64,000 bases of DNA, taken from the NCBI GenBank assembly GCA_051294905.1, contig CM119371.1, positions 14,944,001 through 15,008,000 of the forward strand. The letters run 5' to 3'. This document shows positions 19,884 through 64,000 of the stretch, piece by piece. The DNA is from Botryllus schlosseri (lineage: Eukaryota). A program made the position numbers and the translations under genes. Each line of letters opens with the position of its first letter. The first letter of the stretch is position 1. The notes below the pieces were generated by a model. That model searched no databases and was not told where the DNA came from. It was given only the letters and a program-made list of their open reading frames with translations.

Positions 19884-22382
19884 CTGCCTATATTCAGAAA
19901 TAGTCACGATTTCGTGGCAAGATGATGGTAAAACCTTGACCAAATTTACTTCTTAAAATTTCTTGAAGACTTATTAACGCAATTTTTCATTTCCGCTTGT
20001 AGTTTCAACAGAAATTTAGGATATTACTTTCACCTTGACTATACCTCTATTCGGAAATGGCCAGTTACGATGACACTCTAAAGAATTCCACAATTCAGGC
20101 TAATCCACTTCTTGATGCTCGTGCAATTTTCCTAATTTTCTATTTCCACTTGAGCAATCGCTCACTACTGCTACTTGAACTTGAGCAGAAATGTATGATA
20201 TGATGCTACGACTGATTGAGTACCAACACTAAATTCTTCAACCACCTTCGGTTTTTGCAAATTGTATCGAAGCTATTCATTTTACCATCGTTTGCTCTCC
20301 AACTTTTACGCCTGGGCCTGGCGCCACACTTCGCATTGTTGATGAATGGATTTCGCATCCGGTGCCTGAAAATAGATTGATTTTGAACATTGATTTTCGC
20401 ATATGATAGGTAGGCCTACCATTCAACTTACAGAAAATGATATTATACAGGCACCACTTGTTCCGTGCTCTTTTTTGTCAAGTTGAAGCCCATGATGTAT
20501 TTAACTCTTAAGTACTTCATTATGTGGAGGGTACACTACCCACTTTATAATGCATTCTTCGTGCAGTCTGCTTGACGTGGTCATCACCAACGGCGGACAT
20601 TGCTGATATCTAGGTAAAAAATCAGAATGGTTGTATTCAAGTCATCTGACAGTACGAAAAACAAAACTATGCGGGTGCAAGCATGCTGCCTATAGTACAT
20701 TTACACACTAATCAGTTATCAGGTTACTGTTGGCGAGAAATTCTCGCCGAGAATATTGGCTACACTGTGAATCACCCAGAATATGATTACGTCATCAATG
20801 GTAATTCAATAATTCATTTTGATAGCCGAGATTCGCTGGGCGATACGATAAAGGCCAAACCGCGGCTCTGAGTTGAGGGTTTGATTGCGGCACATGCATT
20901 TCCTCAACTTGAAGAGGGAGTCAACATAATCTTAAATAATGTCTTCTATCACGTTTAGACAATATGCTTGTATATTAACATCAGTTGTCACGCGAGCATT
21001 TATATCTGATCACGCCGATTAATGAATTATGCTGACGTCACAAAGCGATATCATAGTCCAGATGCAGAATAAGGCGCTTGCGCTTTACAATGAACACAAG
21101 CAACCTTGGCATTTGCGCAACAGCGAATATACGGTGTAACTTTAGTCCGGCGTATACCAGGTCTATTTCAGCACATATTGTCGTTCAAAAGTAATTCAGT
21201 ATCGAATCAGAGTGAAAAATATTTCTGCCACGCGAATGAAATTTTTCAATCACGCGAGAAATGTGTCTGTCACGCACAACATGTTGTCGAAAACAACCAC
21301 CGATTCCAGTCTGGGGTGCGGCTATATATACAGGGTGAATTTGGACACGGCAAGAGCGTATCATGTACTACAAAGGGGCATAGTCATTAATAATGAACTA
21401 AACAATAATCAATCATGGTATCCTATCAAAGTATAACTTGCACTTGTTAATAATCAATTCCTACTCATATAGGTTGTATATGGGACATACTTTTCAGCAA
21501 ATGTACTCATTTTATCAGGTTTTTGAAGGAAAAGTCAGCAGTATACTTTCAGCAAGAGTTGTTAATTGGGAATAATTCACAATGGCGGCAATCAGTCTCA
21601 GGCGCAACCAAACTAGTACCACTGTGATTCTGGCAGAAAATGCTAACGTCATGTTTCCGAAATTGTAGATTCATTGTTGTCACAATGATTCACTTGTGCT
21701 AAAATCAAATATTATAACCGGAAAAACAATTTCGCGACAGATTTGGAGCGCAAACGAACTGAAACACGCGAGTTTTATCAATAAATGGCGCAAAAGGTAT
21801 GATCAATACAATATGTTATCGAAACTTGAAGGATTGCTTCATTTTACAACCGCCAAGTAGTAGTTATGGCATCTAAATTTTCGACCATTACGTAATCTAC
21901 GCAGGCGAACCTATTTCGATTCTCGCCCGTTGCCGAAGCACCGGAGGCTTATCTGTGCTACTGCCCCCATGTTTGACTATTTCTTACGGCGTCAAGACGC
22001 CCGAAGAAAGACTCCACAAAAGATATCGAGCAGAAAAAACAAACAAATAATAACGTTTAACGCAGACAGCCTATCCCACACTGTCACATCGGCCAATCGG
22101 CTTTGGTCGTTGTTTGATTAAAATACCATAATAGGTAAATGCAACATCTTCTTGCCTGTTAACTACATCGCATTGGACACTATGTGTCTTGAGCACATCA
22201 GAATATAAATGATTACGATTATTGCGATCAACGTCATGTTCATGTTTGGTATAGGTCGGCTGTAATGCAGCAATTTATAAGTTATTCAATAAACAATAAA
22301 AACAAAAAAAATGCAATAGCGTTGCTTCTGCTTCGGACATTTTATATATTCGCAAAACTATTTCATCGTATGGTTTTACGTA

Positions 22383-24058
22383 GCCTACTTTTTGAAGACC
22401 AAAACGCACGATTTTGCGTCAAATACGACTTTTCGTCGAATTCGATTTTCGGTCAATTCCATTTTTGGTAAGTTTCAATCGACAACTAGGACACCCGAAT
22501 TGTAACGGCGTGCCCTCTGCTTCGGATATGTTATATATTTCGATAAGTATTACATCATGATTATAATGATAATAGCAAAAAGTCGGGAAATCGCGTACTT
22601 TTTTAAGATAAAAATGCATGATTTTTCGTCAAATACGACTTTTCGTCCAATTCGATTTTCGGTCAGTTTCAATCGACAATTAGGACACCCAAAATGTAAC
22701 GGCGTGCCCTCTGCTTCGGATATGTTATATATCTGGATAGGTATTACATCATGATATTAACGATAATGTCAAAAAGTTGAGAAATTGCGTACTTTTTGAC
22801 GATCAAAATGTACAATTTTGCGTCAAATACGACTTTTCGTCCAATTCGATTTTCGGTCAGTTTCAATCGACAATTCGGACATCTAAAATGTAACGGCGTG
22901 CCCTCTGTTTTGGATATGTTATATATCTGGATAGGTATTGCATCATGATATTAACGATAATATCAAAAAGTTGAGAAATTGTGTACTTTTTTAAGATCAA
23001 AATGCATGATTTTGCGTCAAATACGAATTTTCGTCCAATTCGATTTTCGGTCAGTTTCAATCGACAATTAGAACACCCAAAATGTAACGGCGTGCCCTCT
23101 GCTTCGGATATGTTATATATCCGGATAATTAGTACATCATGATATTAACGATAATATCAAAAAGTTGAGAAATTGTGTACTTTTTCAAGATCAAAATGTA
23201 TGATTTTGCGTCAAATACGAATTTTCGTCCAATTCGATTTTCGGTCAGTTTCAATCGACAATTCGGACATCTAAAATGTAACGGCGTGCCCTCTGTTTTG
23301 GATATGTTATATATTTCGAAAAGTATTACATCATGATATTAACGATAATATCAAAAAGTTGAGAAATTGTGTACTTTTTTAAGATCAAAATGCATATTTT
23401 GCGTCAAATACGAATTTTCGTCCAATTCGATTTTCGGTCAGTTTCAATCGAAAATTAGAACACCCAAAATGTAACGGCGTGCCCTCTGCTTCGGATATGT
23501 TATATATTTCGATAAGTATTACATCATGATGTTAACGATAATATCAAAAAATTGAGAAATTGTGTACTTTTCTATGATCAAAATGCATGATTTTGCGTCA
23601 AATACGAATTTTTGTCCAATTCGATTTTCGGTCAGTTTCAATCAACAATTAGAACACCCAAAATGTAACGGCGTGCCCTCTGCTTCGGATATGTTATATA
23701 TCTGGATAAGTATCACATCATGATATTAACGATAATATCAAAAAGTTGAGAAATTGCGTACTTTTTGAGGATCAAAATGTACATTTTTGCGTCAAATACG
23801 ACTTTTCGTCCAATTCGATTTTCGGTCAGTTTCAATCGACAATTAGAACACCCAAAATGTAACGGCGTGCCTTCTGTTTTGGATATGTTATATATCTGGA
23901 TAGGTATTGCATCATGGTGTTAACGATAATATTAAAAAGTTGAGAAATTGCGTACTTTTTGAGTATCAAAATGTACGATTTTGCGTCAAAGACGACTTTT
24001 CGTCCAATTCGATTTTCGGTCAGTTTCAATCGACAATTAGGACACTCAAAATGAAACG
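22383..24058 (+). repeat. 194-bp tandem array, left arm (~8.5 units)
   Basis: ggtcagtttcaatc at 22661, 22855, 23049, 23243, 23436, 23630, 23824 and 24018. Confidence 0.95.
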
Positions 24059-24481
24059 CAAAGCTTTGAGATATTAGACATTTTTGGCGTTGGTAATTGG
24101 TTGATCTTCAATATGGTTAGTCTTTGTTTGCTTGAGGTGTTCATGGTGTTTGTCAGCCACTATGGTCATTTACACAAGGCCATTTTTTTCATATTTATTT
24201 CATATATATTAACTGCCGACTTGTAGCACGGCTAGAATAGGATTTTTATAGAGCACCGCTTACACTGATGAGATGGCGAGGAGGGGCCTTGATAAACCTT
24301 CAACACTAAGGTAGGAATTCTTGAGTCAACCTCGGTAGCTAGCGACTATGTTGGCTGTCACTTGAATTCACGATCAATAATTGGTATTTTGCGGCATAGA
24401 CACGAATATTATTTGGGGCCTTCGCGCCACAATTACGTTAGTTGATGAACCAGCTCGTGATGTCATTTGAACTTGTGAACT

Positions 24482-25107
24482 ATGAAGAAGAAGTGTTGTC
24501 ACACAGGAGAATGCGTACGATCACGTCCAGTTCGCGGAAGCGAGCGGAAAATGATCAGAAGTAAACTGGAGCACCGAAAGCCGGCATCGCTCCCCAACGA
24601 GTTGTACGATACTTTGACCGCTGAGCAGAGGATCCTCGGCTCCCACACAGACGTGCCAAGTTCCAACGTACTTAGAAAACTCAAGTGCAAACAGACTTTA
24701 ATTGATGTCAAACGCGAATGGTACGTCAACTTGGAGAAAATGAAGGATGAAGAGGCGGATTCCACAAGATTTATTAGATCCATTCAAACATCTCCCCGCA
24801 AATCATTATATTTACAATTTTCGGGATCAAAGCGTTTAATACCTTATGTAAGATAGACATGATTTATTGCGACGCCAGTGAGAGCCTGAAAAGAGGTGAA
24901 GACTTCCAAATTTATACGTTGTTGGTGCGGAATCCTATCAAAGGAGAAGTTTATCTTCCTATCGCTTCCTGCATTACAAAAAGTCACGACTCTATATCTA
25001 TCTCACAGTTCCTGAATTTTTTCTGTCTGAACGATTTCGCCTTACCGGAGCTCAATCATCTCCGCCAAGGATTGTTATCGATGGATCGCCTGCAATGTGG
25101 AATCGAA
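24482..25107 (+). pseudogene. Truncated MULE/NOF-like transposase fragment
   Basis: RPVRGSER..VPSSNVLRKLK..FIRSIQTSP, then IYCDASES..IYTLLVRNP..LPIASCITKSHDSISISQFL, resembling the first catalytic-D region of MULE-NOF transposases. Confidence 0.6.
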
Positions 25108-26220
25108 ATATAGAACATATCCAAAGCAGAGGCCACGCCGTTACATTTTAGATGTCCGAATTGTCGATTGAAACTGATTGAAAATCGAATTGGACGAAAA
25201 GTCGTAATCGTACATTTTGATCCTCAAAAAGTACGCGATTTCCCACATTTTTGCTACTATCATTATAATCATGATGTAATACCTATCCAGATATATAACA
25301 TATCCGAAGCAGAAGGCACGCCGTTACATTTTGGGTGTCCTAATTGTCGATTGAAACTGACCGAAAATCGAATTGGACGAAAAGTCGTATTTGACGCAAA
25401 ATTGTGCATTTTGATCTTAAAAAAAGTACACAATTTCTCAACTTTTTGATATTATCGTTAATATCATGATGTAATACTTATCGAAATATATAACATATCC
25501 GAAGCAGAGGGCACGCCGTTACATTTTGGATGTTCTAATTGTCGATTGAAACTGACCGAAAATCGAATTGGACAAAAATTCGTATTTGACGCAAAATCAT
25601 GCATTTTGATCTTAAAAAGTACACAATTTCTCAACTTTTTGATATTATCGTTAATATCATGATGTAAAACTTATCCAAATGTATAACATATCCGAAGCAG
25701 AGGGCACGCCGTTACATTTAGCGTGTCCTAATCATTGATTGAAATAGCCCGAAAATCAAATTGGACGAAAAGTCGTATTTGACGCAAAATCGCGAATTTT
25801 GATCTTGAAAAAGTACGCAATTTCTCAACTTTTTGATATCATCGTTAATATCATGATGTAATACTTATCGAAATATATAACATATCCGAAGCAGAGGGCA
25901 CGCTGTTACATTTTGGGTGTTTTAATTGTCGATTGAAACTGCCCAAAAATCGAATAGGACGAAAAGTCGCATTTAACGCAAAATCATGCATTTTGATCTT
26001 AAAAAAGTACACAATTTCTCAACTTTTTGATATTGTCATTAACATCATGATTTAATACTTATCCCAATATGTAACATATCCGAAGCAGAGGGCACGCCGT
26101 TACAATTCGGGTGTCCTAATTGTCGATTGAAACTTACCAAAAATGGAATTGACCGAAAATCGAATTTGACGAAAAGTCGTATTTGACGCGAAATCGTGCG
26201 TTTTGATCTTCAAAAAGTAG
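25108..26220 (-). repeat. 194-bp tandem array, right arm (~5.5 units, inverted)
   Basis: Reverse complement of the left array unit. Confidence 0.95.
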
Positions 26221-28812
26221 GCTACGTAAAACCATACGATGAAATAGTTTTGTGAATATATAAAATGTCCGAAGCAGAAGCAACGCTATTGCATTTTTTT
26301 GTTTTTATTGTTTATTGAATAACTTATAAATTGCGGCATTACAGTCGACCTATACCAAACACGAACATGACGTTGATCGCAATAATCGTAATCATTTATA
26401 TTCTGATGTGCTCAAGACACATAGTGTGCAATGCGATGTAGTTAACCGGCAAGAAGATGTTGCATTTACCTATTATGGTATTTTAATCAAACAACGACTA
26501 AAGCCAATTGGCCGATGTAACAGTGTGGGATAGGCTGTCTTCGTTAAACGTTATTATTTGTTGTTGTTTTTCTGCTCGATATCACATATAATCTTTTGTG
26601 GAGTCTTTCTTCGGGCGTCTTGACGCCGTAAGAAACAGTCAAACATGGGGGAAGGAACACAAATTAACCTCTGATGCTTCGGCTACAGGCGAGAATCGAA
26701 ATAGGTCCGCCTGCGTAGATTACGTAACGGCTGAAAATTTAGATGCCATAAGTACTACCTGGCGGTTGTAAAATGAAGCACTCCTCCAAGTTTCGATGAC
26801 ATATTGTATTGATTATACCGTTTGCGCCATTTATTGGTAAAACTCGTGTGTTTCAGTTCGTTTGCGCTCCAAATCTGTCGCGAAATTGTTTTTCCGGTTA
26901 TAATATTTGATTTTAGCACAAGTGAATCATTGTGACAACAATGACTCGACAATTTCGGAAATATGACGTAAGCATTTTCTGGCAGAATCACAGTGGTAAA
27001 CTAGTACAATCCATATAAAGTTAGCCAGTGATCAAGCAATAAATAAATGCCTCATTACATAAATTACTATGGTATGACCGCGCAAATACAGGAGATATTT
27101 TTATCACTATCTTGAGGAACATTCAGTCTACCGACCAGCAAAACATGCTATTGGAATGAATCAGCAAATAAGTGTTTATGGCGTTTCAATCATACTGCAG
27201 CGTGTTCACACTTCACAGTATGGCGTATCTGCATTCCAAGAAATAACGAGGCGTAACAAACAATGAGTGTTCTACCATATATCGATATTGAACACAAACT
27301 ATCAACGAAAAAGGAGAAGCTAAATTACGCTCACAAGAAGTGTATACGGTGGTTAAGTCTATTTACGCATCATTCTATATCATTATTAATTAGAACTCTT
27401 ACTATTTCAAACTGTTTCACTGATGGAGCGGTTCGGGTACAGTTTCTGAATCAACAACACTAACAACAGACAGCAAGTCTTCAGCTTTCGCTTCGTACAG
27501 CTTCTCAATCTAATCAATGACTAATGACTGTTTTGTCTGCGTCCATTATCTCTAAGAAAGTCGTCGCATCAGTCACACAGACATCAACTCAGATTCAAAT
27601 GCCAGAAGCATGCGCCGTCGCGCTGCACTGAGCAGGTATCACGTGACGGAGAAGGAAGAAGGCTGTCTGGGCCGCGATTGTTGAGATACCAGACTTGACG
27701 TGTTGTGTGCTACGAATGGTCAATTGGTCATGGCGTATCATGCTTACTGAATCACGTTGTGATGCCGCCACATGCATCACAATTTCACCTTGATGCTCAC
27801 ATTTGTTCTTGTATTTCACCATATTGGGATAGTATACATATTCAGAACACGTATTTCGCCATGATGTGCACTGTGCAGTTGTGCAGGTGCAGGTGCACGC
27901 CTGGGTCCTGCTATATGCCTCTTAGGCCTATAGTTCAGCTTATTAACAATTTCATTAAATCAATACAAAGCAGGATTGCGATATATTTAAGAAAACAGTA
28001 CACCAATAAATGGCTATATAGCCTATATGTCTTACGATTTCGTGCGCGAGATGTGCATGTGCATCCCACGTGGGGATGAATAATGATAATATGCCATTTT
28101 GAACAGAGAGAGAGAGAGAGAGTCATTATTTTGAACAAGCCAGCTGGACTCCATGAAAACGATATCCAAGTAGGGGCATCCTGATGAACTCCCATGTACG
28201 TGGCATCCAGGTGACTGACTACCATGACATCCTCTGGAATATTCATTGGTGACGGGAATAGGAAGATTCTAAAAATTTCTTCCACTGGAAGTCACCTGGA
28301 GTTACATAACTGGACATCCAATTTGTGACAAACTGAGCAAGTCCTCAGTAACTAACCTTGGGAGGTGGGACGAGTTGGAACAATTGTGGACATACCAGTA
28401 AATCCATGGGATATCGGGTGTTTGCTGGGTAGTATATTATGAATACAAAACATTCGATATCACCGAGCAGAGTCATAAAATGTGGGTTTAACGAGATTTT
28501 AACTGGAAACTGAGCAGTCAACACCATAATGACTTGGACTCGGACTCGAGTCACTATATGACTCGGACTCGATACTCTTCTCGCTGACTTGGACTCGGAC
28601 TTGACTCGGTAGTGAATTGAAAATGACTCGACTTGACTCGAGTCAAAACTATAAGAGTGAGGTTGACTTGTGACCCGGAGCCGTGTGTCTTGGTTACAAC
28701 CCTGATTTCTGTGATGTTTAGCAGTTGAAACCTTTCAAACTGCGTGGGCCTTGAGATCGGGCTGTCGCGCCTGAAATTACACAGAAAAAAAAAGGAGGTA
28801 TTTACCTTAGAA

Positions 28813-46582: not shown

Positions 46583-47916
46583 GTTTATAGTCAGGAATAT
46601 GGCGTCACCAACTGCGATCTGAAGCTGTAGTCAAATTAATTTCTTGAGCTAGTTGGTGATCAAACCAATTACGTGCCCCATTGAGCACCAGCCGCGCTTT
46701 CATATCGTTCGCATTTTGTCTTTGACGAGCGCGAGAGAATCGGATCTGTCACACAGCATCGATGCCGATCCTGTTCTAAATCGATATGTTATTGGGACAG
46801 AGCAGGCAGGCAGTTCGTGAGAACATGGCTCCGATTTGATAATACCACGCTTTCTTCGTGCCTGGTCATGTAGCCTATAATCTTTACAAATTAGGTGTCA
46901 GGCATTCGGAGATTATCAGCTTATATGAACTACTATACGGTACTAATTGATCGTGGAGCTGTGCAGTTCAAACGTGTGTCTGATTTCACCAGCCGTATGA
47001 TTCTGATACAATTGACTTCCAAATCTGATAGAAATACCACATTTTGTTGGCTCCGCGATGTAACTTAAAGGTAGAGCTCTGATATGCTTCGTAAGACGAC
47101 AGGTAGGTATCAGTATACTTATACATGAGACATACAAGCGGTCGGTCGTTGAACTGATAGTATGGATTTTTTTCCACTGCCGTACTCGTATATTGGTAAT
47201 TGTGTACATATTGCTATAATTTATTCACCCTCTCACAGCCCACGTAACCAGAGTTACCGGTAAAGCGGGGTCAGGTGCTGTGTAGAAAAGTTTAGGGCAC
47301 TTAATGAATAATTAAACATATTCGGGCGGGTCGGTTGCCAAAATCTACATCTAGCTCCATTAAATCGCCCGAAGCGCGAAAACAAGATGAATCATGTTGC
47401 AATAATTTAAAAAAATACTATATAGGCTACTTATGTTCACTCACTAAATAATTTCTGGCCCCCTTCGTGCTCGGAATCCCAATCGGGAGGTTCGTGGGGC
47501 GGCGGTTTCGATCTCCTTTACGTATATGTCACTCTTTCGAATAATATTTTCGGTAATTTCATACTTTCACACATCCAACAGGGGTACGTACTATCTTTTT
47601 CGTACGTGCGCCACGATACTGGATGTAAGGTGTGTTCTGCGTCCGTTCACATTGCATACTCCTTTGCTCGATGTCCTCTCTCACAAATCTGGAGAATGGT
47701 GAAACTATGTCCATTGTCCGTGCGTCTGTTGAATTTCAAAACCAACCATAACGTTGGCTTATGCTTGTTACTTGTACCTGAGGTTGCTACTCACTTCATG
47801 CTAGTTTGGGTCCTTCTGAATTTGGGGTGCGACAGATTGAAAACTATCATTGGAAAATATAACGTTAATTTCAGTCTTAGAGTATTTTCATAGCGGAATA
47901 AATTGTAGGCTCTGTG

Positions 47917-48704
47917 ATGAATATCGTTTACAAAAAATCTAAAACGCACCCTGGCAATCTCTTCTCACAACTGAAAGCGAACGGGGAGTTTTGCGACATC
48001 ACAATAAAATGCGGAGACATTCAAGTTACGGCCCATAAATGCGTTTTAGCCGAGTCCACGGAGTATTTCAGAGTGATGTTCTCGAACGACGCGTACGAAG
48101 CCAATACCGGAATCATAGACTTCTCTACGTCAATGACTCCAGAGGTTATGAACCAATGTGTCGACTTCATTTATTTGGGATCTGTAGCGATATCCACGCC
48201 AATCGCAAAAGGCCTGCTTGAGGCGGCGGAAATGCTGCAGCTGCTGGACCTATCTGAACTCTGTTACGAATTTTTGACCGAAAACATGGAGCTGGAAACT
48301 TTTGAAGAAGTTGTCTCGTGGTATCGTCTCTACAAGAAGCATCCTTGGAATGGCCCGATAAGGATGTTTGTTCATGCTAATGTAAAACCACTTCTAACGT
48401 CTGGTCGTATCAAGCTGCTGGATTACGAAACGATGGGATATTTTTTCGATTTGATGCGAGGGGCCTTTGCACCGTCCGAGTAGCCTACTTTAAATGGTCG
48501 GCACTGCAGGCTTGGACACACGAGAATGTCAAAGAAAGAGAGACCCAGTTTCACGACCTGTTTTCAAAGATCGATCTGCAAGGCATTCCGAGGGACATAG
48601 TCGAAACGATAATTTGTGCGGAGAGCTTACTTGATGGCTCGCTGAAATGCCTGCGACATATTTGCAAATACTTCGCAAGCCAGCTACCTTGCTTGGAGCT
48701 ATAA
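47917..48704 (+). pseudogene. BTB-BACK paralog disrupted by a 5-bp insertion
   Basis: Collinear with 4349-5119; stop at 48481-48483; homology resumes at 48486 (YFKWSALQAWTHEN..FHDLFSKIDL) to TAA at 48702-48704. Confidence 0.85.
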
Positions 48705-50625: not shown

Positions 50626-51059
50626 GAAATTATGACACCTTCAATGAGACTCGAGTCACGTCAAGCCGCTCGACTTTTTATGGTGACTCGAGTCAAGTCG
50701 AGTCAAGTCAAGTCACGAGTCAGTTCACAATTCAAGTCAAGTTGCCTTTTCGAAGTATGAGGCATGATTACGTCATTGCATTTTGCTAGCTGTCTGATAT
50801 ACTGATTGAGTGGTCATTGATTTCGAACCGATCAACGAATATAGAGTGAAATATACACGCCAAGAAGGCGCTTTATCGCTGTCGTATACGTAGAACTGGT
50901 AAACTACGTAAGTAATTGCATAGCCTCAGTTTATAGTTACCACTTTACCATCCGAAATAGAGAATAGAGAAACGAATTGATGAGATGCGATATAATACCC
51001 ATTTACAAATTGATATGATTCAATTTCAGCTTGCGCCAATGGTTGAGGACTATATAGAC

Positions 51060-51143
51060 CAGGGGCGGGTAACATACGGCCCGCGACGGGATTTTGTGCG
51101 GCCCGCCGACAGTTTTCGGTCTTACGTGATGATGCGGCCCACG
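51060..51143. mobile_element. Left end of a Charlie-like MITE interrupted by the Polinton-like element
   Basis: caggggcgggtaacatacggcccgcg..gcggcccacg breaks abruptly at AGTAGT. Confidence 0.6.
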
Positions 51144-54100
51144 AGTAGTATATACGATCGCTCGCGAACGGCTATGGGGCGCTTATGGCGGGGGTGGCAT
51201 ATCGCCTGGAAACCCGGGGTGGCATATCGCGCTTTTAGACCCCCCTCTCGGTCGCACATCGCCATTGGTTCTTATGGGTGGGGTGGCATGTCGCACTTTT
51301 CGGTATAGGCATCTCTCACACATCGCATGGAAAACTCGTGGTGGCATATCGCACTTTTAGATATAGGCATCTCTCGCACATCGCGCGGAAACTCGTGGCG
51401 GCATGTCGTACTTTCGAGTATAGGCATCTCTCGATCGGTGTTGAATATGTATCAAGTAAATAGTCATGTGAATGAATCTTTGTTAATGTGTATATCGTGA
51501 AAACTCGGGGTCGTGACTCACCTTCTTTGCTATAGGCGGTGGCGGCGATTCGCCATGTATTCTTACGGGAACTGTGATGATTCGCCATGTGTTCTTATGG
51601 GTGCGGTCGTGATTCGTACTTTCAACCATCTCTCGCGTGGTGTTGAATAGTCACCAACAATAACCGCGCAAACGGAAACGTGGCTTGCAAGAGGATTTAC
51701 GCAGTGCATGCGACAGACGGCGATTCGAATATCAACAATAACCGCGTTCGCAAACTAACACTTCCAAAAGATGTGAAATATTTGTAAAATCCTACGATCG
51801 CTCACAAGATACCACTTCCGGCAAATCGATCTATCACTCAATACACAACCGAAGTTGAATTGTAATTGAATGCGTAAATTTATCACCTCGACATCAAAAT
51901 TCGAAAACAACAACTTGACGCTTTATGTTCTCACTCTAATTTCATGATAAGTGTAATAAGTGCCGAATAACAGATACATCACCGGCGAGACTTGAATACC
52001 AACAAATTGTCACTTATTTCTATTCTAGCCGTAATCCTTTGTGAAGTTAACGCTTATTCAAAAAGGTGTGAAATAGTTTGCAAAACCCCGCGATCACTGA
52101 CAAGATAATGTCTCGGACATACCCATCTTTCGCGACTTGGTGTCATAGCCATACCGATCGCTCACGCGGTGAAATTTTAGTAATCAGTTTGTCACAGAAC
52201 TAGATTTCACTGGTAAGATTTAATAAATACCGACTATCAGAACCATCAGTGTGGGTAACTTGAATAGCAACAAATTGTCACTTATTTCCGACGAGAAATT
52301 CACTAAACCGCAGTACATTGTGTGATTTTGAAAAACAGATGTTTGCGCTTGCGTTTTGATATGTGCGACCCACTAACTACATCCGTTTTGCGAACACGGC
52401 TTGTTGTGAGGATTACGCGCGCGCCCTATATTTCGAATGACCTGCGCGCTGAAGTGCGAAATAGTTTGCTAAATCTAGTAATCAGTCGCAAGGTGTTACT
52501 TTAGTAATTAGTTTACCATAGAACCGGCGTAGCCGGTGATTCGAATACCGACAAATTTTCACTTATTTCTGACCCAACCCTAATCCTCTGTGAAGTTGAC
52601 GCTTATTCAAAAAGGTGTGAAATAATTGTAAAATCCTAATCCGAAACCGATTATTTTGACTTTGGCGTAGTGTGCATTGAAATAGGATTGACAAACATGA
52701 CTAGCAACTTCCCCACAGTCCCGTTTCGATATTATACACACATTGATTTGAAACAAGTAATGTAACATTACAACTCTATTCCCGATCCAGCTTTCCGTTT
52801 GTCAAAGAGACATTTTAACATCTTACCATACTCAAAAGAATTATTCACAACATTAACAAGTGTTTAAAATCTAGTTTTCACTTACTTGGCTATATCAGTA
52901 CAACTCGCAAACTTGAATTAATTCATCTGGTTGTATTCATAGGACCGATAATTTTTATCCAACTGTAAAGGTCGTTATACTATTCTGTAAGACAGAGTAT
53001 TTACTAATCGGTGCATATACGATTTGACTTGGTCATATTATATTTTGAGTATACGAGATTTGAGTGTCAGAACAATAACTGAGAATTAAATTATCACAAT
53101 TGAATCCATATACGACAGCGTGAATTAAATTATCACAATTGAATCCATATACGACAGCGTAAAAGATATTGGGATGTCAGCATCTCTTTACGGTTATAGT
53201 TACAACCACATTACCTAATTTACCCGACCAACTCGTCATGATCATTCCCGAAATCAACACAAACATGACTACTGACTTGAGTCAACCACAAAACAGCATC
53301 AAGTTTTAAATCCACTTGTAGCTTACGGCTTATTTGAATGCGGGTTATGTTTTGTTGTAATTGAGTGTACGGAAATAGTATTACGTCTCGACATCTCACC
53401 ATCTTACCATACTCAAAGAGTCAACCACGAAAACATTGTCAAGTAAATCCGTTTGTAACTTACCCAACCAACTCAAACGGTATCAGTATGAAAAACAGCC
53501 AAACATACACGAATCCATACAATCACTAAAACCTAAAATCCATAACAAGCTTGGTTGTATTCATATCCCTACACATCTTTTTTTATTCAGCTTGAAAAGT
53601 CGTTACTATTCTGTAAGATAGAGGAATTACTACGCGGTATATTCTGCAAGACAAACTAATTACTACTCGGTATATTTTGTAAGACAAAAGTAATTACTTC
53701 TCAGTGTCGGCGACTTGAGATTAACATAATATGTTTGAGTATACGAGATTTGAAAGTCCGACCAACGTGGTTGAGAATTCATTTCTTACAATCGAACAAT
53801 GGTGTTATATTCAAAGTTATCATGCTGTGAACATAAGATTGACACATTGATTTGACATATGAGATTTGTAATAGTTGATCATTACTTTATTATTAAATTA
53901 TTTGCGTTAATTAGACCCGGCGTTATGGTAAATGTTATGACAGCAACAAACTTTTCAGTACCAATGTTATTAACACATTAAGCTGTAAAACTATGTATGT
54001 CTGAAATGTTCTTGATAGGAAAATTACTCCACCTTGGTAAAAATCACTCTGCGTATTGCGGATATCAGAAAATATTTCCAGTACCCAAGACTAAAGATGA

Positions 54101-56169
54101 AACGACAATTTCGTTTGCTGATTAACAACCGGTACAATACTTTATCATCATAATCCGCGGTGAGAATTGAAACACTTTCGCGCATTACCCGGAGTCAAGA
54201 TATCACACTAGGTGAATTGACATACCGCCGCTTGAATAATACCTAATCCGTTCGCACCATTTCACATACTTTGATCATTACAAAAGTAAATTGTGATATG
54301 TTTGTTAGATGCATTCAATTCAACTAGAAGTGTCTGGTACACAACAATCGTAATATCGAAAAAGTACTTGCCACACTGTTATTTGCTAAACGTGTTTTGC
54401 ATTGTTGTTCATTTGTAGTATTGATTGTTTTTGAACCCCCAAATCATAATTCCCGACATGAAACCAAGCCGCTGAAAGTCGTTACCATCACGAAGATACA
54501 ATGTGCACGATGATTGTCAAATGTGTCCTACCTGGCCAACAGAAAACAATTTTCACTCACTCGAAATGAAACCAATGTGATGGTCTCCATTCGATATTTT
54601 GTTTGTGTCAAATATACTTTGCAATGAACACATTTGCGTGGTTGAGCTTTGCCATCATCAAGCTGTCATTTGTATCGTTTAATTAACCGACATTTAGCGA
54701 TTGGTGAACATACCGAACGATACACAGTCACTTCGAAATACTCCGTTGATCGTAATTTCCATCATCATAATAATCGAAGTACAATTGCTTCGAATCGCTA
54801 GAGTGGTTGAGCTTTACATCATCAGACTGCCATCTGTACATCAAGAATACATCCACCTTGTAACTGGGTCGTTTACCTAACCGAGTTGTATGCACAGTTT
54901 GATATTTAGCGATTGCAGAACATACCATTTCGAAATACTGCGTTGATCTCAATTCCTTTGTCGTGATAATCGAAGTATATTTGTTTCGATTTCATAAAAA
55001 CCAACTTTTCTATGACATGATAAATTTTTGAAAAGTTATACTTAGAAGGTTGGTGCATATCGCGAAAAATAATATACCGCCCATATTGATATTGCTACTC
55101 CATTGATCGGTATTTTCACGCGAGTCGATTTTCAAATGAGTAAAATTTATTACATGAGTTTCTGCGCTTAATGTAAATGAAAACTCAGTCGTCTTTTAAC
55201 ATCACAAAGACATTGATAAAAAGTAAGCAATCAAACACAACACTTTGTACGACACTAGTTATTGTTCCACACATCTCATTTCATACTAAGTGTATACGAA
55301 AGATATTCATGATGCACGAAAATATTCGCTCATGCTACAAACCTGTAGAATGATTGGTGGTGCAAGGCCAGCACAATTGTGGTATCCATCCGAGTTTAGT
55401 TAACACAAATTTATTACAACAGAGCCACGTAAACTTTCGTGAAAGAAAAGCATACTCACTTTCAGAGGGTTATGTCAATGCCATAGCAGTAAATCAAAAA
55501 TATTCCTAACCCATTGCACACCGGTGACAAATCATACAACAAACATTTTTTGTGAGTCGAATTGTTGTTCAGTGTCAAGTCTACCTGTTGAAAAGTGCAT
55601 CAAAACAACACAGTCACAATTCAATTAAAACCACGAATCTATTTTCATTTCGTCACATACAGAAAAATAAATTTTCTTTCCCCAACACATACTTGTAACC
55701 AATCGCTTTCATTAAACACACAACTCCATAAAAGTATTTACTTTCTACAACATAGACATTCCGATGTAGTCAAGAAATATTAAAACGGACACGACACGAC
55801 TGAATGTAAGGGGATAGAAGTCTATCGCATCGATTTACATGTGGTCTTCGCTACGGTTTCAAAAAAACGAATCATCTATTTTGCATTGGTCGAGACCGAG
55901 CGAGCCAGTTACATGTATTTGCGGTAATGATTTTTCTTGTCATATGCGAATGATAGGTTTACTACTCCGACAAATCAAATCAACAAACAACAACAATCTT
56001 CTGACGATCATAATAGCAATTTCATTTGCCACCCCTTCGTAATTGTACACGCACGAAAAGTATATTGTACAACTCGGCAACTACGTTTAACAAGACCAAT
56101 CACACTACCAGCGTTGAACGCAAGATACCTACCCAAGTCAAAAATATCATACGGGTTTGGACAACTGAC

Positions 56170-56720
56170 GTTTACCTGTGTAAAATTATCATTTTCACTT
56201 GGCGATCTATCCTTTCCTAGAGTAACAAACCCTTGTCGTTTACAAATCTATTTTTTTTTCCTACAACAAAAAACTATTTTCACTTGGAAAAATACTTTTA
56301 CCTAGAGTAACTAATCATTTTCTTTTAAAAATATATTTTCTCCCTGGGTAACAAACCCTTTTCGTTTGGAAAACTATCATTTACCTGAGTACCAATACCG
56401 TTTTCACTTGGCAGTCCGTCGTTTACCTGGCTAAACATATCATTTTCACTTGGAAATCTATTTTTTCCCAGAGTAAGAAACCTTTTTCACTTTGAAATCT
56501 ATTTTTTCCCTGGGTAACAAACCTTTTTCACTTGGAAATATATTTTTCCCCAGGTAACAAACCTTTTTCGCTTGGAAATATATTTTTCCCTGGGTTACAA
56601 ACCTTTTTCACTTGGTGGTCCGTCATTTACCTGGATAAAAATATCATTTTCCTTTGGGGGATCTGGCGTTTACCCAGTGTAACAATACATTTTCTCTTGG
56701 TCATCTAGCTTTTCCTAGAG
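56170..56720. repeat. ~38-39-bp minisatellite (mirrored at ~59170-59720)
   Basis: Units like tttttccctgggtaacaaacctttttcacttggaaatcta. Confidence 0.9.
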
Positions 56721-56849
56721 TAACAAAACCATTTTCATTTTGAAATCTGACAAACACACCTGACAATTTGATATTTTTGTATATTGTTACAACGGATAGC
56801 GACAAAATATACACCAACAACAACTCCAATACATTTGTGTAATCGCATA

Positions 56850-58030
56850 TTCACTTGTGCTGATGCAGCCCATCAATATCATCGGTTACCCGCATGCAAT
56901 ATCCTCTTGTACACCGAAATGCATGTTTTGGAAAATTGGACAATAGGCTTCGATAGTTCTGTGATGTCCGGGTTCGTGCTTTGGATTTTCCAGAGTCAAA
57001 ATGTCTGAATAAAACACTTCCTCGACGATGGTTGGTATGTGGATAACGGGGTTCGGAAGACGGTTGGATTTATGTCACCCATCGCGATAACAATTCCAGG
57101 TCGAGTTTTCCCCCCGCATGTTTACTATATTGTGTCTTTATTGGTCAATGTATGTCTCAACATTCAGATTGAAATCGGAAACCCTGATAAAGTATGTAAC
57201 CGGATCCGGATATCAACTCTGAATCGATAAACCAATGAACAATATTCAAAGTAAACATGTTACATTCCACGAAAAAATACCATCCAGACATACGTCGCGC
57301 TTGTTTGCCCACAACAGTATACGCGTAAATGGAGGTGTGTGACATTGCATGCAATGTGTTGGTATACAAACATCGGGGAGTAAGCCTTCGATCCACAGAC
57401 ATTATCATAGCCGGTAATTTTGATGCAGATCGAATGTCACCCGATAACAATACCAATAAGCCACATTGCAATGACTCTGAGTCCGCGCTATTACATCGAT
57501 ATTTCGACACCGTTCACTGATTTATTCGATGGTGTTATCGTGTTGTAACATTACAAGATAGTCATGATCCTATCTGTAGACGGACCACCCAGATCAATTG
57601 GATACATCGGTCAATATCCATCGTGTTGTCGACACCGAAGTTTTCTGCTGAGACTACAGCGTTTGATCTAGGTGAACTATGGAAGTACGGTGCTCGAAAT
57701 GATTGCAATCAGTCTTTCAGTCACGATCAATGGATGTCGCTACTCCCACATAACGACTCCGGATAAATATCGTGCAAATGTCGGACTGATATTGTGATCC
57801 AATAAGGTATGTTTCTGTGGAATGAAGACTGCAATCGTACACCACAATAGAACACTACCTCGTGATTTCACACGCAATCATAAAACACACTTTCGTAAGG
57901 GTCTAGCTCGTCCGGTGACATTTCGAAACGGTCGTCACCACAAGAGATCGGGGTTGGTCTCGTCATATCGGAGCATTTTGAAACGACATCGTCACAAGTC
58001 TATTGACGTCGATTCAGTTGGTCATGTCAA
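56850..58030 (+). pseudogene. Possible Polinton major capsid protein C-terminal remnant
   Basis: Ordered fragments QYPL, TLPRRWLV/VDNG, VSLLVN, TAFDL, FRKGLARPVT and SIDVDSVGHV resemble MCP motifs; many frameshifts. Confidence 0.45.
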
Positions 58031-58099
58031 TCCGTTTCACAATCCACCGTTTTTCCACTCCCCGCACCATAGTGTTACGACACAGACAAGAAGCGTCGG

Positions 58100-58360
58100 T
58101 GGAAATAATAAAACACGGAAAGCACACTTTGGTGTTATTTGACATGGATTTTACACCCGACGAACCTCACATTCGAGCGATGCATTGGAATGACGCTTGT
58201 ATTATTGATGTAGAAGGAACAGAAATGTATCGATTTATTGGTTTCGTACGTATCCAACAAAAATCTGGGTATATGATTGTGCATGGTTCGCATATTTGAC
58301 TGTGAACGCTCTATTGGTATATGCTGTATAGTTCACTTTCACCGTCGTGCGAATAACCCA
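58100..58360 (+). pseudogene. Possible adenain-like cysteine protease remnant
   Basis: DFTPDEPHIRAMHWNDACIID..(Y-F-D-x-x-G-like after a frameshift)..SIGICCIVHF, immediately after the capsid-like remnant. Confidence 0.4.
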
Positions 58361-61300
58361 TGTTACGGTTCGGTGTTTGTGTGTCTGTATGTCCTGCTTC
58401 AGATTGACTCAGAGTCATTGCAATGTGGCTTATTGGTATTGTTATCGGGTGACATTCGATCTGCATCAAAATTACCGGCTATGATAATGTCTGTGGATCG
58501 AAGGCTTACTCCCCGATGTTTGTATACCAACACATTGCATGCAATGTCACACACCTCCATTTACGCGTATACTGTTGTGGGCAAACAAGCGCGACGTATG
58601 TCTGGATGGTATTTTTTCGTGGAATGTAACATGTTTACTTTGAATATTGTTCATTGGTTTATCGATTCAGAGTTGATATCCGGATCCGGTTACATACTTT
58701 ATCAGGGTTTCCGATTTCAATCTGAATGTTGAGACATACATTGACCAATAAAGACACAATATAGTAAACATGCGGGGGGAAAACTCGACCTGGAATTGTT
58801 ATCGCGATGGGTGACATAAATCCAACCGTCTTCCGAACCCCGTTATCCACATACCAACCATCGTCGAGGAAGTGTTTTATTCAGACATTTTGACTCTGGA
58901 AAATCCAAAGCACGAACCCGGACATCACAGAACTATCGAAGCCTATTGTCCAATTTTCCAAAACATGCATTTCGGTGTACAAGAGGATATTGCATGCGGG
59001 TAACCGATGATATTGATGGGCTGCATCAGCACAAGTGAATATGCGATTACACAAATGTATTGGAGTTGTTGTTGGTGTATATTTTGTCGCTATCCGTTGT
59101 AACAATATACAAAAATATCAAATTGTCAGGTGTGTTTGTCAGATTTCAAAATGAAAATGGTTTTGTTACTCTAGGAAAAGCTAGATGACCAAGAGAAAAT
59201 GTATTGTTACACTGGGTAAACGCCAGATCCCCCAAAGGAAAATGATATTTTTATCCAGGTAAATGACGGACCACCAAGTGAAAAAGGTTTGTAACCCAGG
59301 GAAAAATATATTTCCAAGCGAAAAAGGTTTGTTACCTGGGGAAAAATATATTTCCAAGTGAAAAAGGTTTGTTACCCAGGGAAAAAATAGATTTCAAAGT
59401 GAAAAAGGTTTCTTACTCTGGGAAAAAATAGATTTCCAAGTGAAAATGATATGTTTAGCCAGGTAAACGACGGACTGCCAAGTGAAAACGGTATTGGTAC
59501 TCAGGTAAATGATAGTTTTCCAAACGAAAAGGGTTTGTTACCCAGGGAGAAAATATATTTTTAAAAGAAAATGATTAGTTACTCTAGGTAAAAGTATTTT
59601 TCCAAGTGAAAATAGTTTTTTGTTGTAGGAAAAAAAAATAGATTTGTAAACGACAAGGGTTTGTTACTCTAGGAAAGGATAGATCGCCAAGTGAAAATGA
59701 TAATTTTACACAGGTAAACGTCAGTTGTCCAAACCCGTATGATATTTTTGACTTGGGTAGGTATCTTGCGTTCAACGCTGGTAGTGTGATTGGTCTTGTT
59801 AAACGTAGTTGCCGAGTTGTACAATATACTTTTCGTGCGTGTACAATTACGAAGGGGTGGCAAATGAAATTGCTATTATGATCGTCAGAAGATTGTTGTT
59901 GTTTGTTGATTTGATTTGTCGGAGTAGTAAACCTATCATTCGCATATGACAAGAAAAATCATTACCGCAAATACATGTAACTGGCTCGCTCGGTCTCGAC
60001 CAATGCAAAATAGATGATTCGTTTTTTTGAAACCGTAGCGAAGACCACATGTAAATCGATGCGATAGACTTCTATCCCCTTACATTCAGTCGTGTCGTGT
60101 CCGTTTTAATATTTCTTGACTACATCGGAATGTCTATGTTGTAGAAAGTAAATACTTTTATGGAGTTGTGTGTTTAATGAAAGCGATTGGTTACAAGTAT
60201 GTGTTGGGGAAAGAAAATTTATTTTTCTGTATGTGACGAAATGAAAATAGATTCGTGGTTTTAATTGAATTGTGACTGTGTTGTTTTGATGCACTTTTCA
60301 ACAGGTAGACTTGACACTGAACAACAATTCGACTCACAAAAAATGTTTGTTGTATGATTTGTCACCGGTGTGCAATGGGTTAGGAATATTTTTGATTTAC
60401 TGCTATGGCATTGACATAACCCTCTGAAAGTGAGTATGCTTTTCTTTCACGAAAGTTTACGTGGCTCTGTTGTAATAAATTTGTGTTAACTAAACTCGGA
60501 TGGATACCACAATTGTGCTGGCCTTGCACCACCAATCATTCTACAGGTTTGTAGCATGAGCGAATATTTTCGTGCATCATGAATATCTTTCGTATACACT
60601 TAGTATGAAATGAGATGTGTGGAACAATAACTAGTGTCGTACAAAGTGTTGTGTTTGATTGCTTACTTTTTATCAATGTCTTTGTGATGTTAAAAGACGA
60701 CTGAGTTTTCATTTACATTAAGCGCAGAAACTCATGTAATAAATTTTACTCATTTGAAAATCGACTCGCGTGAAAATACCGATCAATGGAGTAGCAATAT
60801 CAATATGGGCGGTATATTATTTTTCGCGATATGCACCAACCTTCTAAGTATAACTTTTCAAAAATTTATCATGTCATAGAAAAGTTGGTTTTTATGAAAT
60901 CGAAACAAATATACTTCGATTATCACGACAAAGGAATTGAGATCAACGCAGTATTTCGAAATGGTATGTTCTGCAATCGCTAAATATCAAACTGTGCATA
61001 CAACTCGGTTAGGTAAACGACCCAGTTACAAGGTGGATGTATTCTTGATGTACAGATGGCAGTCTGATGATGTAAAGCTCAACCACTCTAGCGATTCGAA
61101 GCAATTGTACTTCGATTATTATGATGATGGAAATTACGATCAACGGAGTATTTCGAAGTGACTGTGTATCGTTCGGTATGTTCACCAATCGCTAAATGTC
61201 GGTTAATTAAACGATACAAATGACAGCTTGATGATGGCAAAGCTCAACCACGCAAATGTGTTCATTGCAAAGTATATTTGACACAAACAAAATATCGAAT

Positions 61301-64000
61301 GGAGACCATCACATTGGTTTCATTTCGAGTGAGTGAAAATTGTTTTCTGTTGGCCAGGTAGGACACATTTGACAATCATCGTGCACATTGTATCTTCGTG
61401 ATGGTAACGACTTTCAGCGGCTTGGTTTCATGTCGGGAATTATGATTTGGGGGTTCAAAAACAATCAATACTACAAATGAACAACAATGCAAAACACGTT
61501 TAGCAAATAACAGTGTGGCAAGTACTTTTTCGATATTACGATTGTTGTGTACCAGACACTTCTAGTTGAATTGAATGCATCTAACAAACATATCACAATT
61601 TACTTTTGTAATGATCAAAGTATGTGAAATGGTGCGAACGGATTAGGTATTATTCAAGCGGCGGTATGTCAATTCACCTAGTGTGATATCTTGACTCCGG
61701 GTAATGCGCGAAAGTGTTTCAATTCTCACCGCGGATTATGATGATAAAGTATTGTACCGGTTGTTAATCAGCAAACGAAATTGTCGTTTCATCTTTAGTC
61801 TTGGGTACTGGAAATATTTTCTGATATCCGCAATACGCAGAGTGATTTTTACCAAGGTGGAGTAATTTTCCTATCAAGAACATTTCAGACATACATAGTT
61901 TTACAGCTTAATGTGTTAATAACATTGGTACTGAAAAGTTTGTTGCTGTCATAACATTTACCATAACGCCGGGTCTAATTAACGCAAATAATTTAATAAT
62001 AAAGTAATGATCAACTATTACAAATCTCATATGTCAAATCAATGTGTCAATCTTATGTTCACAGCATGATAACTTTGAATATAACACCATTGTTCGATTG
62101 TAAGAAATGAATTCTCAACCACGTTGGTCGGACTTTCAAATCTCGTATACTCAAACATATTATGTTAATCTCAAGTCGCCGACACTGAGAAGTAATTACT
62201 TTTGTCTTACAAAATATACCGAGTAGTAATTAGTTTGTCTTGCAGAATATACCGCGTAGTAATTCCTCTATCTTACAGAATAGTAACGACTTTTCAAGCT
62301 GAATAAAAAAAGATGTGTAGGGATATGAATACAACCAAGCTTGTTATGGATTTTAGGTTTTAGTGATTGTATGGATTCGTGTATGTTTGGCTGTTTTTCA
62401 TACTGATACCGTTTGAGTTGGTTGGGTAAGTTACAAACGGATTTACTTGACAATGTTTTCGTGGTTGACTCTTTGAGTATGGTAAGATGGTGAGATGTCG
62501 AGACGTAATACTATTTCCGTACACTCAATTACAACAAAACATAACCCGCATTCAAATAAGCCGTAAGCTACAAGTGGATTTAAAACTTGATGCTGTTTTG
62601 TGGTTGACTCAAGTCAGTAGTCATGTTTGTGTTGATTTCGGGAATGATCATGACGAGTTGGTCGGGTAAATTAGGTAATGTGGTTGTAACTATAACCGTA
62701 AAGAGATGCTGACATCCCAATATCTTTTACGCTGTCGTATATGGATTCAATTGTGATAATTTAATTCACGCTGTCGTATATGGATTCAATTGTGATAATT
62801 TAATTCTCAGTTATTGTTCTGACACTCAAATCTCGTATACTCAAAATATAATATGACCAAGTCAAATCGTATATGCACCGATTAGTAAATACTCTGTCTT
62901 ACAGAATAGTATAACGACCTTTACAGTTGGATAAAAATTATCGGTCCTATGAATACAACCAGATGAATTAATTCAAGTTTGCGAGTTGTACTGATATAGC
63001 CAAGTAAGTGAAAACTAGATTTTAAACACTTGTTAATGTTGTGAATAATTCTTTTGAGTATGGTAAGATGTTAAAATGTCTCTTTGACAAACGGAAAGCT
63101 GGATCGGGAATAGAGTTGTAATGTTACATTACTTGTTTCAAATCAATGTGTGTATAATATCGAAACGGGACTGTGGGGAAGTTGCTAGTCATGTTTGTCA
63201 ATCCTATTTCAATGCACACTACGCCAAAGTCAAAATAATCGGTTTCGGATTAGGATTTTACAATTATTTCACACCTTTTTGAATAAGCGTCAACTTCACA
63301 GAGGATTAGGGTTGGGTCAGAAATAAGTGAAAATTTGTCGGTATTCGAATCACCGGCTACGCCGGTTCTATGGTAAACTAATTACTAAAGTAACACCTTG
63401 CGACTGATTACTAGATTTAGCAAACTATTTCGCACTTCAGCGCGCAGGTCATTCGAAATATAGGGCGCGCGCGTAATCCTCACAACAAGCCGTGTTCGCA
63501 AAACGGATGTAGTTAGTGGGTCGCACATATCAAAACGCAAGCGCAAACATCTGTTTTTCAAAATCACACAATGTACTGCGGTTTAGTGAATTTCTCGTCG
63601 GAAATAAGTGACAATTTGTTGCTATTCAAGTTACCCACACTGATGGTTCTGATAGTCGGTATTTATTAAATCTTACCAGTGAAATCTAGTTCTGTGACAA
63701 ACTGATTACTAAAATTTCACCGCGTGAGCGATCGGTATGGCTATGACACCAAGTCGCGAAAGATGGGTATGTCCGAGACATTATCTTGTCAGTGATCGCG
63801 GGGTTTTGCAAACTATTTCACACCTTTTTGAATAAGCGTTAACTTCACAAAGGATTACGGCTAGAATAGAAATAAGTGACAATTTGTTGGTATTCAAGTC
63901 TCGCCGGTGATGTATCTGTTATTCGGCACTTATTACACTTATCATGAAATTAGAGTGAGAACATAAAGCGTCAAGTTGTTGTTTTCGAATTTTGATGTCG

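Follow-up and report, generated by a model that had tools for sequence, protein, structure and literature searches.

Non-autonomous Polintons are said to have been named by Kapitonov and Jurka in 2006. In the accessible text of two published surveys, one of vertebrates and one of nematodes, the TIRs of Polintons (Mavericks) measure 46 to 1,447 bp (mean, 402 bp) and 100 to 1,500 bp (PMC8097293; bioRxiv 10.1101/2023.08.22.554363). According to the accessible part of the first of these, the end motif in the vertebrate set of Barreat and Katzourakis (2021) is (AG)3 or (AGT)2, and 96% of the vertebrate Polinton loci are degraded (PMC8097293). Related derivatives are described elsewhere, as far as the accessible portions of the sources go: phi29 yields subgenomic DNAs by template switch (PMC4974454), the title of Vierula and Bertrand (1992; via PMC11161782) names a hairpin deletion derivative of kalilo, and AAV forms snapback genomes (PMC8235507). 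For helper-dependent adenovirus vectors, genomes shorter than ~75% of the wild-type length are reported to rearrange to grow (PMC12111873).

The window analyzed here (64,000 nucleotides of Botryllus schlosseri DNA; contig CM119371.1, positions 14,944,001 to 15,008,000) contains a mirror-image element of 13.6 kb (51144-64745). This is a real DNA structure, with arms of 6,340 bp that differ at a single site (51161), surround a loop of 922 bp, and account for 93% of the element (Table 1). Within the window, positions 51889-57483 and 58406-64000 are 100% complementary at a spacing of 922 nt. The original prediction, made from the window, had claimed inverted arms around such a loop and an ACTACT end at ~64745; the mirror does reach 64745, past the window, and ends in ACTACT. 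Beyond this terminus, the symmetry stops and does not continue into the flank. Instead, the predicted TSD cccacg and the rest of the MITE follow, so that the MITE cut by the AGTAGT start at 51144 resumes past the right TSD. This MITE, which we take to be of the hAT type from its CAG end and 8-bp TSD, is flanked by atatagac (left copy, 51052-51059); its right end reads ...cccgcccctg, is followed by atatagac at ~65551-65559, and mirrors atatagac-caggggcggg at 51060. The claimed subterminal repeats were found at 51182-51650, with longer dispersed repeats reaching 52640, and the terminal region as a whole (51144-51700) varies among copies while matching between both ends of a single copy. The folding of the loop as ssDNA was not unusual (z, 0.43).

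TABLE 1 Features of the mirror element and its insertion site (window coordinates)
Feature	Position	Strand	Remarks
MITE left piece (84 bp of a ~884-bp MITE, presumably hAT type)	51060..51143	+	Remainder 64752-65551, beyond window
TSD cccacg (6 bp)	51138..51143		Second copy 64746-64751, beyond window
Left arm	51144..57483	+	6,340 bp; starts AGTAGT; without coding signal
Terminal and subterminal repeat region	51144..51700	+	Short interchangeable modules, common to full Polintons
Non-coding homology stretch	52295..52453	+	74-76%, E 4e-29, to full Polintons
Possible pPolB N-terminal remnant (faint, with stops)	54982..55144	+	Weak; colinear with helper layout
41-bp tandem array	56277..56615	+	8.3 copies; mirror 59274-59612
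Near-palindrome GACTC(T/A)GAGTC (11 bp)	57473..57483	+	Stem/loop boundary; mirror 58406-58416
Unique loop	57484..58405		922 bp
91-aa ORF, intact	58024..58299	+	Apparent purifying selection; AATAAA downstream at 58747-58752
Right arm	58406..64000	-	Mirror of left arm; extends past window to 64745

The ends (AGTAGT...ACTACT) and the 6-bp TSD are of the Polinton type, as had been claimed, and the element shares with Polintons the (AGT)2 motif, the presence of TIRs, and a size within 12.7 to 24.6 kb, the range given in the accessible text. Polintons as described there, however, have TIRs of at most ~1,500 bp around a multigene interior, whereas the arms described here enclose a 922-bp interior with no core genes and one unrelated 91-aa gene. 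One terminus is inverted and duplicated around a unique loop. As in the phi29, kalilo, and AAV derivatives, the result is self-complementary and would need the replication proteins of a parent; those derivatives arise during replication according to the text available, whereas the mirror element is integrated and heritable and has subfamilies and its own gene. Helper-dependent adenovirus vectors are likewise gene-less with cis ends (the satellites here are ~75 to 90% of the helper length), but the mirror element is natural and integrating, and its size distribution may reflect packaging.

Elements with the same ends number ~670 (end motifs: 673 forward, 676 reverse, and none in reversed controls). 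We retrieved 22 of them, picked by size and not at random, including 15 multi-kb palindromes and 3 full Polintons. The 6-bp TSD was perfect in 14 of 15 copies and, in a further set, in 20 of 21 (1 mismatch in the remaining one). Unnested end pairs on C1 mostly spanned 13 to 15 kb (25/44) and never <3 kb (0/44), and full Polinton copies measured 15.4 to 17.3 kb. Short forms of 3.3, 3.6, 8.5, 9.0, and 10.3 kb are also present, plus one outer element of ~1.1 kb; the junction of one 9-kb short form occurred once among 40 scored places. The stem/loop boundary recurs at GACTC(T/A)GAGTC in 15 of 20 mapped loops. One structure has been inserted many times independently, as in a non-autonomous Polinton derivative, and the palindromes (several hundred copies of 13 to 15 kb) likely make up >1% of the genome.

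Regarding the ends, the terminal 100 bp consist of shuffled modules that are common to full copies and palindromes. Most termini (35/36) were distinct, with a median identity between elements of 75%, whereas the two ends of the same element matched at 94 to 100%. A double end with mirroring on either side agrees with long-tract copying but was discarded as proof, because the splitting of a 300-bp palindrome at its self-complementary center would give the same arrangement.

Nine close copies were compared for the similarity of their arms. Arm divergence was 0.062% within a copy versus 0.54% between copies, and 59 private variants were present in both arms versus 30 in one, across all six 1-kb bins, indicating that the arms have been repeatedly recopied. 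None of the arm asymmetries was common to different copies among the nine, two asymmetric sites hold alleles present in other copies, and indel blocks were symmetric in 10 of 16 cases (among them a 40-bp deletion). Homogenization thus acts along the full length of the arms, and copy-back, mismatch or loop repair, and chromosomal conversion are each compatible with the present data. Long inverted repeats can pair within one chromatid, and the arms of sex-chromosome palindromes are kept alike by gene conversion. We nevertheless regard as unlikely a reading with the same helper dependence in which the arms are kept alike by chromosomal gene conversion after insertion. The two sites with alleles seen in other copies agree with it, but single-arm insertions persist in at least 6 copies, some copies have arms only 97 to 99% alike, and, wherever the ends of copies were read, the mirror halts at the terminus rather than entering the unique flank. 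Moreover, termini differ among near-identical copies, which conversion within a copy is unable to create.

The arms show no codon periodicity. The element contained no long ORF, the Pfam six-frame scan of the arm and loop and of a sister arm yielded 0 families, and no integrase profile matched the arm, in line with the claimed absence of pPolB and integrase. For capsid, ATPase, and protease, tblastn and profiles from the genome's own Polintons gave nothing above reversed controls. Decayed genes had also been claimed in the arms; what we found is one weak pPolB trace, and the MCP or protease remnant sought by tblastn and profiles at 56850-58400 was neither there nor elsewhere in the arm. A look-alike of an APE endonuclease, noted by eye near 57330-57480, had no Pfam support and was dropped. 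The pPolB trace had E values of 0.019 (tblastn), 0.0033 (profile, 12 frames), and 0.036 (132 frames; best reversed control lower). The counterpart of 52295-52453 in full Polintons lies between the OB-fold gene and a 300-aa ORF, which anchors the arm to the replication-module end of the helper. Beyond the weak trace, no gene matched the arm interior and loop in nine other Polinton loci, and neither arm nor loop was matched by the six loci examined from more distant Polinton families of this genome. As to derivation of the interior from a parent, the non-coding anchor is strong and the pPolB trace weak; Polinton descent of the whole arm thus appears only partly shown.

Full Polintons with the same end modules encode pPolB homologs, an integrase (Pfam rve, E 2.9e-16), and an ATPase, the sole helper protein named by PHROGs; further ORFs are presumably capsid-like and adenain-like, judging from their motifs. 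Pfam PF03175 indicated no pPolB in the genome, with its control matching nowhere; this was a false negative, as a protein query gave 150 matches. All four conserved sites checked were kept in 7 of the 23 polymerase frames examined, and in many full-length copies the frame is open yet catalytically substituted. Each arm of a sister subfamily retains the helper's OB-fold gene, placed as it is in the helper, and a single element has a satellite-type arm fused to the capsid half of the helper, indicating that satellites and helpers recombine. These observations bear on an independent, non-Polinton foldback-type element that captured Polinton ends around a host-derived or foreign interior, which we consider improbable: the Polinton proteins and DNA tested had no match in the loop or in most of the arm, and the loop protein has only 5 homologs (63 to 95% identity) on short contigs, but both the non-coding anchor and the weak pPolB trace lie in the same order as at the left end of the helper, the sister subfamily retains the OB-fold gene in place, and no transposase is encoded. 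Such an origin would leave the mode of mobilization unchanged.

The loop ORF had a dN/dS of 0.43, was open in 20 of 21 alleles, and had amino acid identities down to 60%; the reverse frame over it was likewise low (0.49; one frame). Codon periodicity was seen in 2 of 49 windows (p, 0.018 and 0.008, uncorrected). Among the best-scoring 150 matches, 5 contained a stop, although ranking by score favors open frames. The protein had no Pfam match and no PDB sequence match, and a profile search did not detect the gene in the Polinton loci searched. Its AlphaFold model (pLDDT, 40; best VIA Z, 4.1) may be all-beta, with low confidence. A jelly-roll or penton origin was considered, and the penton-family profiles matched nothing. 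No record containing the stretch was annotated as RNA. Two single-cell RNA runs (3 to 4% of each sampled) gave 398 and 357 reads. Most of these stem from diverged copies, and the reads pile up with a strand bias over the inner arm. The pile hints that the loop gene is transcribed outward; it also fits host read-through or internal priming. Judging from its sequence evolution, the loop carries an intact gene that appears to be under purifying selection and is not common to the helper.

A junction probe of 1,101 bp, covering both stem/loop junctions, was matched against the assembly for occurrences at other loci and aligned over its full length at 39 of the 40 places scored, the window locus among them (2 of the 39 being one gap-duplicated locus). 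Independent support was sought in contigs of other public runs, with a bar of at least 31 letters on each side of a junction. The 58405/58406 junction was bridged in 2 of 4 runs, from two studies, and a third run fell one letter short; for the left junction, no piece among those listed reached the bar. An assembly or chimeric-read artifact mirroring one element end is thus hardly credible: the assembler does have trouble with such elements, as two four-armed forms elsewhere coincide with scaffold gaps of 100 N, and polishing could inflate arm identity, but the flanks are distinct (with TSD and two MITE halves), the junctions are identical at nearly all scored places, mismatches are specific to copies, insertions occur in single arms, and the right junction is present in contigs from two other studies.

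We consider it probable that the element is a mirror derivative of a Polinton end from this same genome, with one conserved gene, and that full Polintons likely copy and insert it in trans, making it a helper-dependent satellite. The original prediction of a copy-back defective Polinton stands insofar as one Polinton end was duplicated into a giant TIR, given the shared helper end modules and the coexisting full Polintons with the same ends. It overlooked the family and the intact loop gene: hundreds of members, a fixed junction, and apparent selection on the gene favor a stable satellite lineage over a one-off defective copy. Defective Polinton copies likewise have lost their coding capacity and kept their ends; unlike such fossils, the copies here are young and numerous, with a fixed architecture, a length near that of the helper, arms that have been reset repeatedly, and a gene seemingly under selection.

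Shared ends, TSD length, nesting, and recombinants suggest mobilization in trans by full Polintons, and size clustering may reflect packaging in helper capsids. To our knowledge, Polinton replication has been modeled from sequence and not observed. In the proposed mechanism, helper terminal protein and pPolB would start at the AGTAGT end and displace one strand, which, being 93% self-complementary, would snap back to give a stem of 6.3 kb and a loop of 0.9 kb, re-forming a duplex origin. In or before this hairpin, one arm would serve as template for resynthesis of the other, either because the nascent strand folds back past the loop or because the 3′ arm is trimmed and refilled, and the arms would thereby be reset at or near each transposition. 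Co-replicating elements may swap terminal modules between strands, with the modules then copied to the opposite end, and the helper integrase would insert the product with a 6-bp TSD. More speculatively, doubling a ~7-kb half would bring the length back to a packageable value like that of the helper, and transmission may be aided by the loop protein. A broader scheme is tentative and rather doubtful; it would have three tiers, i.e., full viruses, a selected class with dead polymerase, and a capsid-packaged hairpin satellite with the 91-aa protein as an exploit or block factor and an end code reshuffled nearly every cycle.

The open-access main texts searched contained no account of multi-kb palindromic derivatives of Polintons. 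Gene-based Polinton surveys, in their accessible text, demand pPolB plus integrase (PMC8097293; bioRxiv 10.1101/2023.08.22.554363) and would therefore miss such palindromes. If packaged, these elements would represent satellites of a virus-like transposon that are integrated in an animal genome; the same texts gave no description of such satellites. For the genome, multi-kb palindromes are fragile structures. The 6-kb arms make the proposed folded single-strand intermediate measurable, and the hundreds of natural copies allow arm resetting, end swapping, and size limits to be read.

The window (G000:C1:14944001-15008000; genome, 495.5 Mb; 219 contigs) and the neighbouring stretch together contain the whole palindromic element. 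It begins with AGTAGT, ends with ACTACT at 64745, and is flanked on both sides by the target site duplication (TSD) cccacg. The 6,340-bp arms differ by 1 mismatch. The interrupted MITE continues beyond the element and closes with an inverted terminus and an 8-bp duplication, atatagac, at about 65551-65559. The end, the TSD, and the MITE remainder all lie as the original prediction had placed them, and the mirror does not run past 64745 into the flanks, a continuation that had been named as counterevidence. The right loop-arm junction (58405/58406), for which independent data had been sought, is spanned by at least 31 letters per side in contigs of two of four other runs (two studies). One probe covered both junctions, and 39 of the 40 places scored in the genome matched it over its full length, the recurrence at other loci that had been looked for.

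Features of the window and of related stretches (G000, whole assembly; C1, contig carrying the window; L-numbers, stretches fetched from G000; plain coordinates are window positions)
Feature	Location	Strand	Description
Palindromic element	51144-64745		13,602 bp
Fully complementary arm segments	51889-57483; 58406-64000		922-nt loop between
Non-coding match to helper	52295-52453		E 4e-29
pPolB trace	about 54982-55144		weak
Loop ORF	58024-58299	+	91 aa, intact
Substituted pPolB class	34 close pPolB matches in G000; L133-L145, L081, L083/L084, L124/L125		open frames, site check
OB-fold gene	L047:3730-4374; L048:5621-6262; full Polintons		~200 aa, predicted
Hybrid element	L105/L106, G000:C1:38196562-38211497		TSD; palindrome-type left arm, dead-type polymerase end, open ATPase, integrase, capsid module
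Nested family members	G000:C1:16768420-16810257; 40804931-40836115		up to three deep
Doubled termini	L131/L132, G000:C1:33469672-33483361		on each side, a pair of termini spaced 153 bp; both ends identical; outer TSD CCCACC
Foldback-like structure	21617-26998		5.4 kb; outer inverted repeats 408 bp (93%); ~194-bp unit arrays in opposite orientations
Inverted repeat pair	11290-11883		246 bp (95%), spacing 102 nt
Dispersed repeat	4555-5177; 47859-48481		623 bp, inverted orientation, 76%

Two disjoint end patterns gave 524 + 149 forward and 532 + 144 reverse matches, with none in controls; thus, about 670 elements carry these ends. Twenty-two end pairs, picked by size, were fetched (one in part), comprising 15 palindromes with multi-kb arms, 3 ordinary full Polintons with 690- to 790-bp terminal inverted repeats (TIRs), 1 hybrid, 1 element of 3.3 kb, and 2 with 1.6- to 1.9-kb arms that look like one-arm deletions. 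Perfect 6-bp TSDs flanked 20 of 21 size-picked elements and, among the copies in the first set, 14 of 15. The 124 ends on C1 formed 50 pairs, leaving 24 unpaired; several elements sit nested inside one another, and 25 of the 44 unnested pairs measure 13 to 15 kb. Two four-armed duplicates (L041 and L130) lie across 100-N scaffold gaps and are probably assembly artefacts. Other palindrome lineages (L099/L100 and L123 at C1:27.09 Mb and 40.81 Mb; L093/L094) have differing loops, either 332 bp without the 91-aa gene or 982 bp with a version of it that is 60% identical, the junction differing too.

The expectation of decayed genes in the arms, including those for the major capsid protein (MCP) and protease, was not borne out. 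Searches with Pfam, tblastn, and profiles from the genome's own Polinton proteins detected no MCP, penton, protease, ATPase, or integrase remnants in the arm, and its 47 windows showed no codon periodicity and many indels. That integrase would be unrecognisable held; for pPolB, said to be equally so, there is one weak trace (E 0.0033 over 12 frames; 0.036 over 132 frames). This trace and a strong non-coding match are colinear with the replication-module end of the helper, with the OB-fold gene left out. Among the best 150 genomic matches of the loop ORF (88 to 100% identical), 5 contain a stop, and 20 of 21 distinct alleles are open at identities down to 60%. Its dN/dS is 0.43 (other five frames: 0.76, 0.99, 0.70, 0.49, and 1.13), and periodicity is confined to the two windows over it, each with 2 indel columns. 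The protein has five database homologues (63 to 95% identity); Pfam, PDB sequences, and a model-based structure search assigned no family or fold. RNA evidence on the element is a hint only.

The helpers, full Polintons of the same genome, encode an OB-fold ORF, a 300-aa ORF, pPolB, ATPase, and an integrase with a chromodomain (Pfam rve, E 2.9e-16). Further ORFs, to which a Pfam search gave no name, are labelled penton-like, MCP-like, and adenain-like from their motifs and position. Databases contain 165 homologues of the pPolB ORF, many of them carrying PF03175, and a 151-aa piece of it matched 34 genomic copies at 87 to 100% identity, about 58 at 68 to 73%, and more distant families. Four checked sites, near-invariant across 60 homologues, are all kept in 7 of 23 polymerase frames and all lost in 16. 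In the substituted class, the frame is open (1,129 to 1,222 aa), the four active-site positions are replaced, and the C-terminus is shortened. With a dN/dS of 0.17 to 0.28 (intact class, 0.05 to 0.08 over exonuclease and polymerase parts), this class is still under purifying selection. PMC11161782 assigns the terminal protein to the N-terminal end of pPolB, so the dead polymerase may have a priming or structural role. One full copy (second half, L076, C1:19.6 Mb) has a separate 177-aa ORF upstream of pPolB that resembles the pPolB N-terminus. At least four further Polinton families (L111-L122) have short TIRs and pPolB about 29 to 50% identical over the piece searched; satellite sequence did not match them.

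Nine close copies were compared over the core (51700-57483). Copies differed from one another by 0.54% on average and loops by 0.66%, against a mean of 0.062% between the arms of a single copy. Private substitutions were shared by both arms in 59 cases and restricted to one arm in 30, affecting every 1-kb bin; 2 asymmetric sites bear alleles known from other copies, and no asymmetry is common to several copies. Ten of 16 indel blocks are symmetric, among them a 40-bp deletion that a single copy has. At least six copies retain one-arm insertions, and in some the arms are 97 to 99% alike. The pattern fits arms that are reset at or near transposition and then drift independently. In 15 of 20 mapped loops (84 to 100% DNA identity), one and the same 11-bp near-palindrome marks the end of the stem; the other 5 have a different junction or an indel adjoining it.

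The first 100 nt are unique in 35 of 36 elements (median identity, 75%; at least 98% in 1 of 630 pairs), whereas within a single element the ends are 94 to 100% identical. The window copy differs from its closest relative by 7 substitutions in the 5.8-kb core, yet the tips are only 73% alike. Tips are assembled from a small module set common to helpers and palindromes. Exchange with helpers is also seen within elements: in a sister palindrome subfamily, each arm carries the helper OB-fold gene (dN/dS 0.22), placed as in the helper, and in the hybrid a satellite-type arm that stops 39 bp before the stem end is joined to the ATPase-integrase-capsid half of a helper. The OB-fold product is predicted to be a tandem OB-fold, RPA70-like, single-strand-binding protein; RPA70-type tandem OB folds are the best match (E 5.7e-6) of a low-confidence model (pLDDT 52).

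In the proposed replication of Polintons, strand displacement liberates a single strand, the TIRs of which pair. The displaced strand of the window element would form a 6.3-kb stem, and one arm could be re-synthesised from the other, which would account for private variants and large changes being symmetric and for ends that are matched yet shuffled. Adenovirus ends undergo panhandle repair, and a kalilo deletion derivative, in work ascribed to Vierula and Bertrand in 1992, reportedly forms hairpins. The role expected for the end repeats of Polintons is in protein-primed initiation (PMC8097293), and in phi29, template switching by the protein-primed polymerase gives subgenomic molecules (PMC4974454). 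Palindrome lengths cluster at about 75 to 90% of helper size, resembling the genomes of helper-dependent adenoviruses, in which those under ~75% grow by rearranging (PMC12111873). Given this likeness and the size constraint described for Mavericks (PMC8097293), packaging of the palindromes is plausible.

The window element is not an autonomous Polinton, differing from one in TIR length and gene content: Polinton TIRs are given as up to about 1.5 kb in PMC8097293 and bioRxiv 10.1101/2023.08.22.554363, in contrast to its 6,340-bp arms. No description of a multi-kb palindromic Polinton family was found in the papers searched. As the original prediction had proposed, the element works like a copy-back, helper-dependent Polinton derivative. 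We conclude that it is real and young, and that it belongs to a large, putatively helper-dependent Polinton satellite family.
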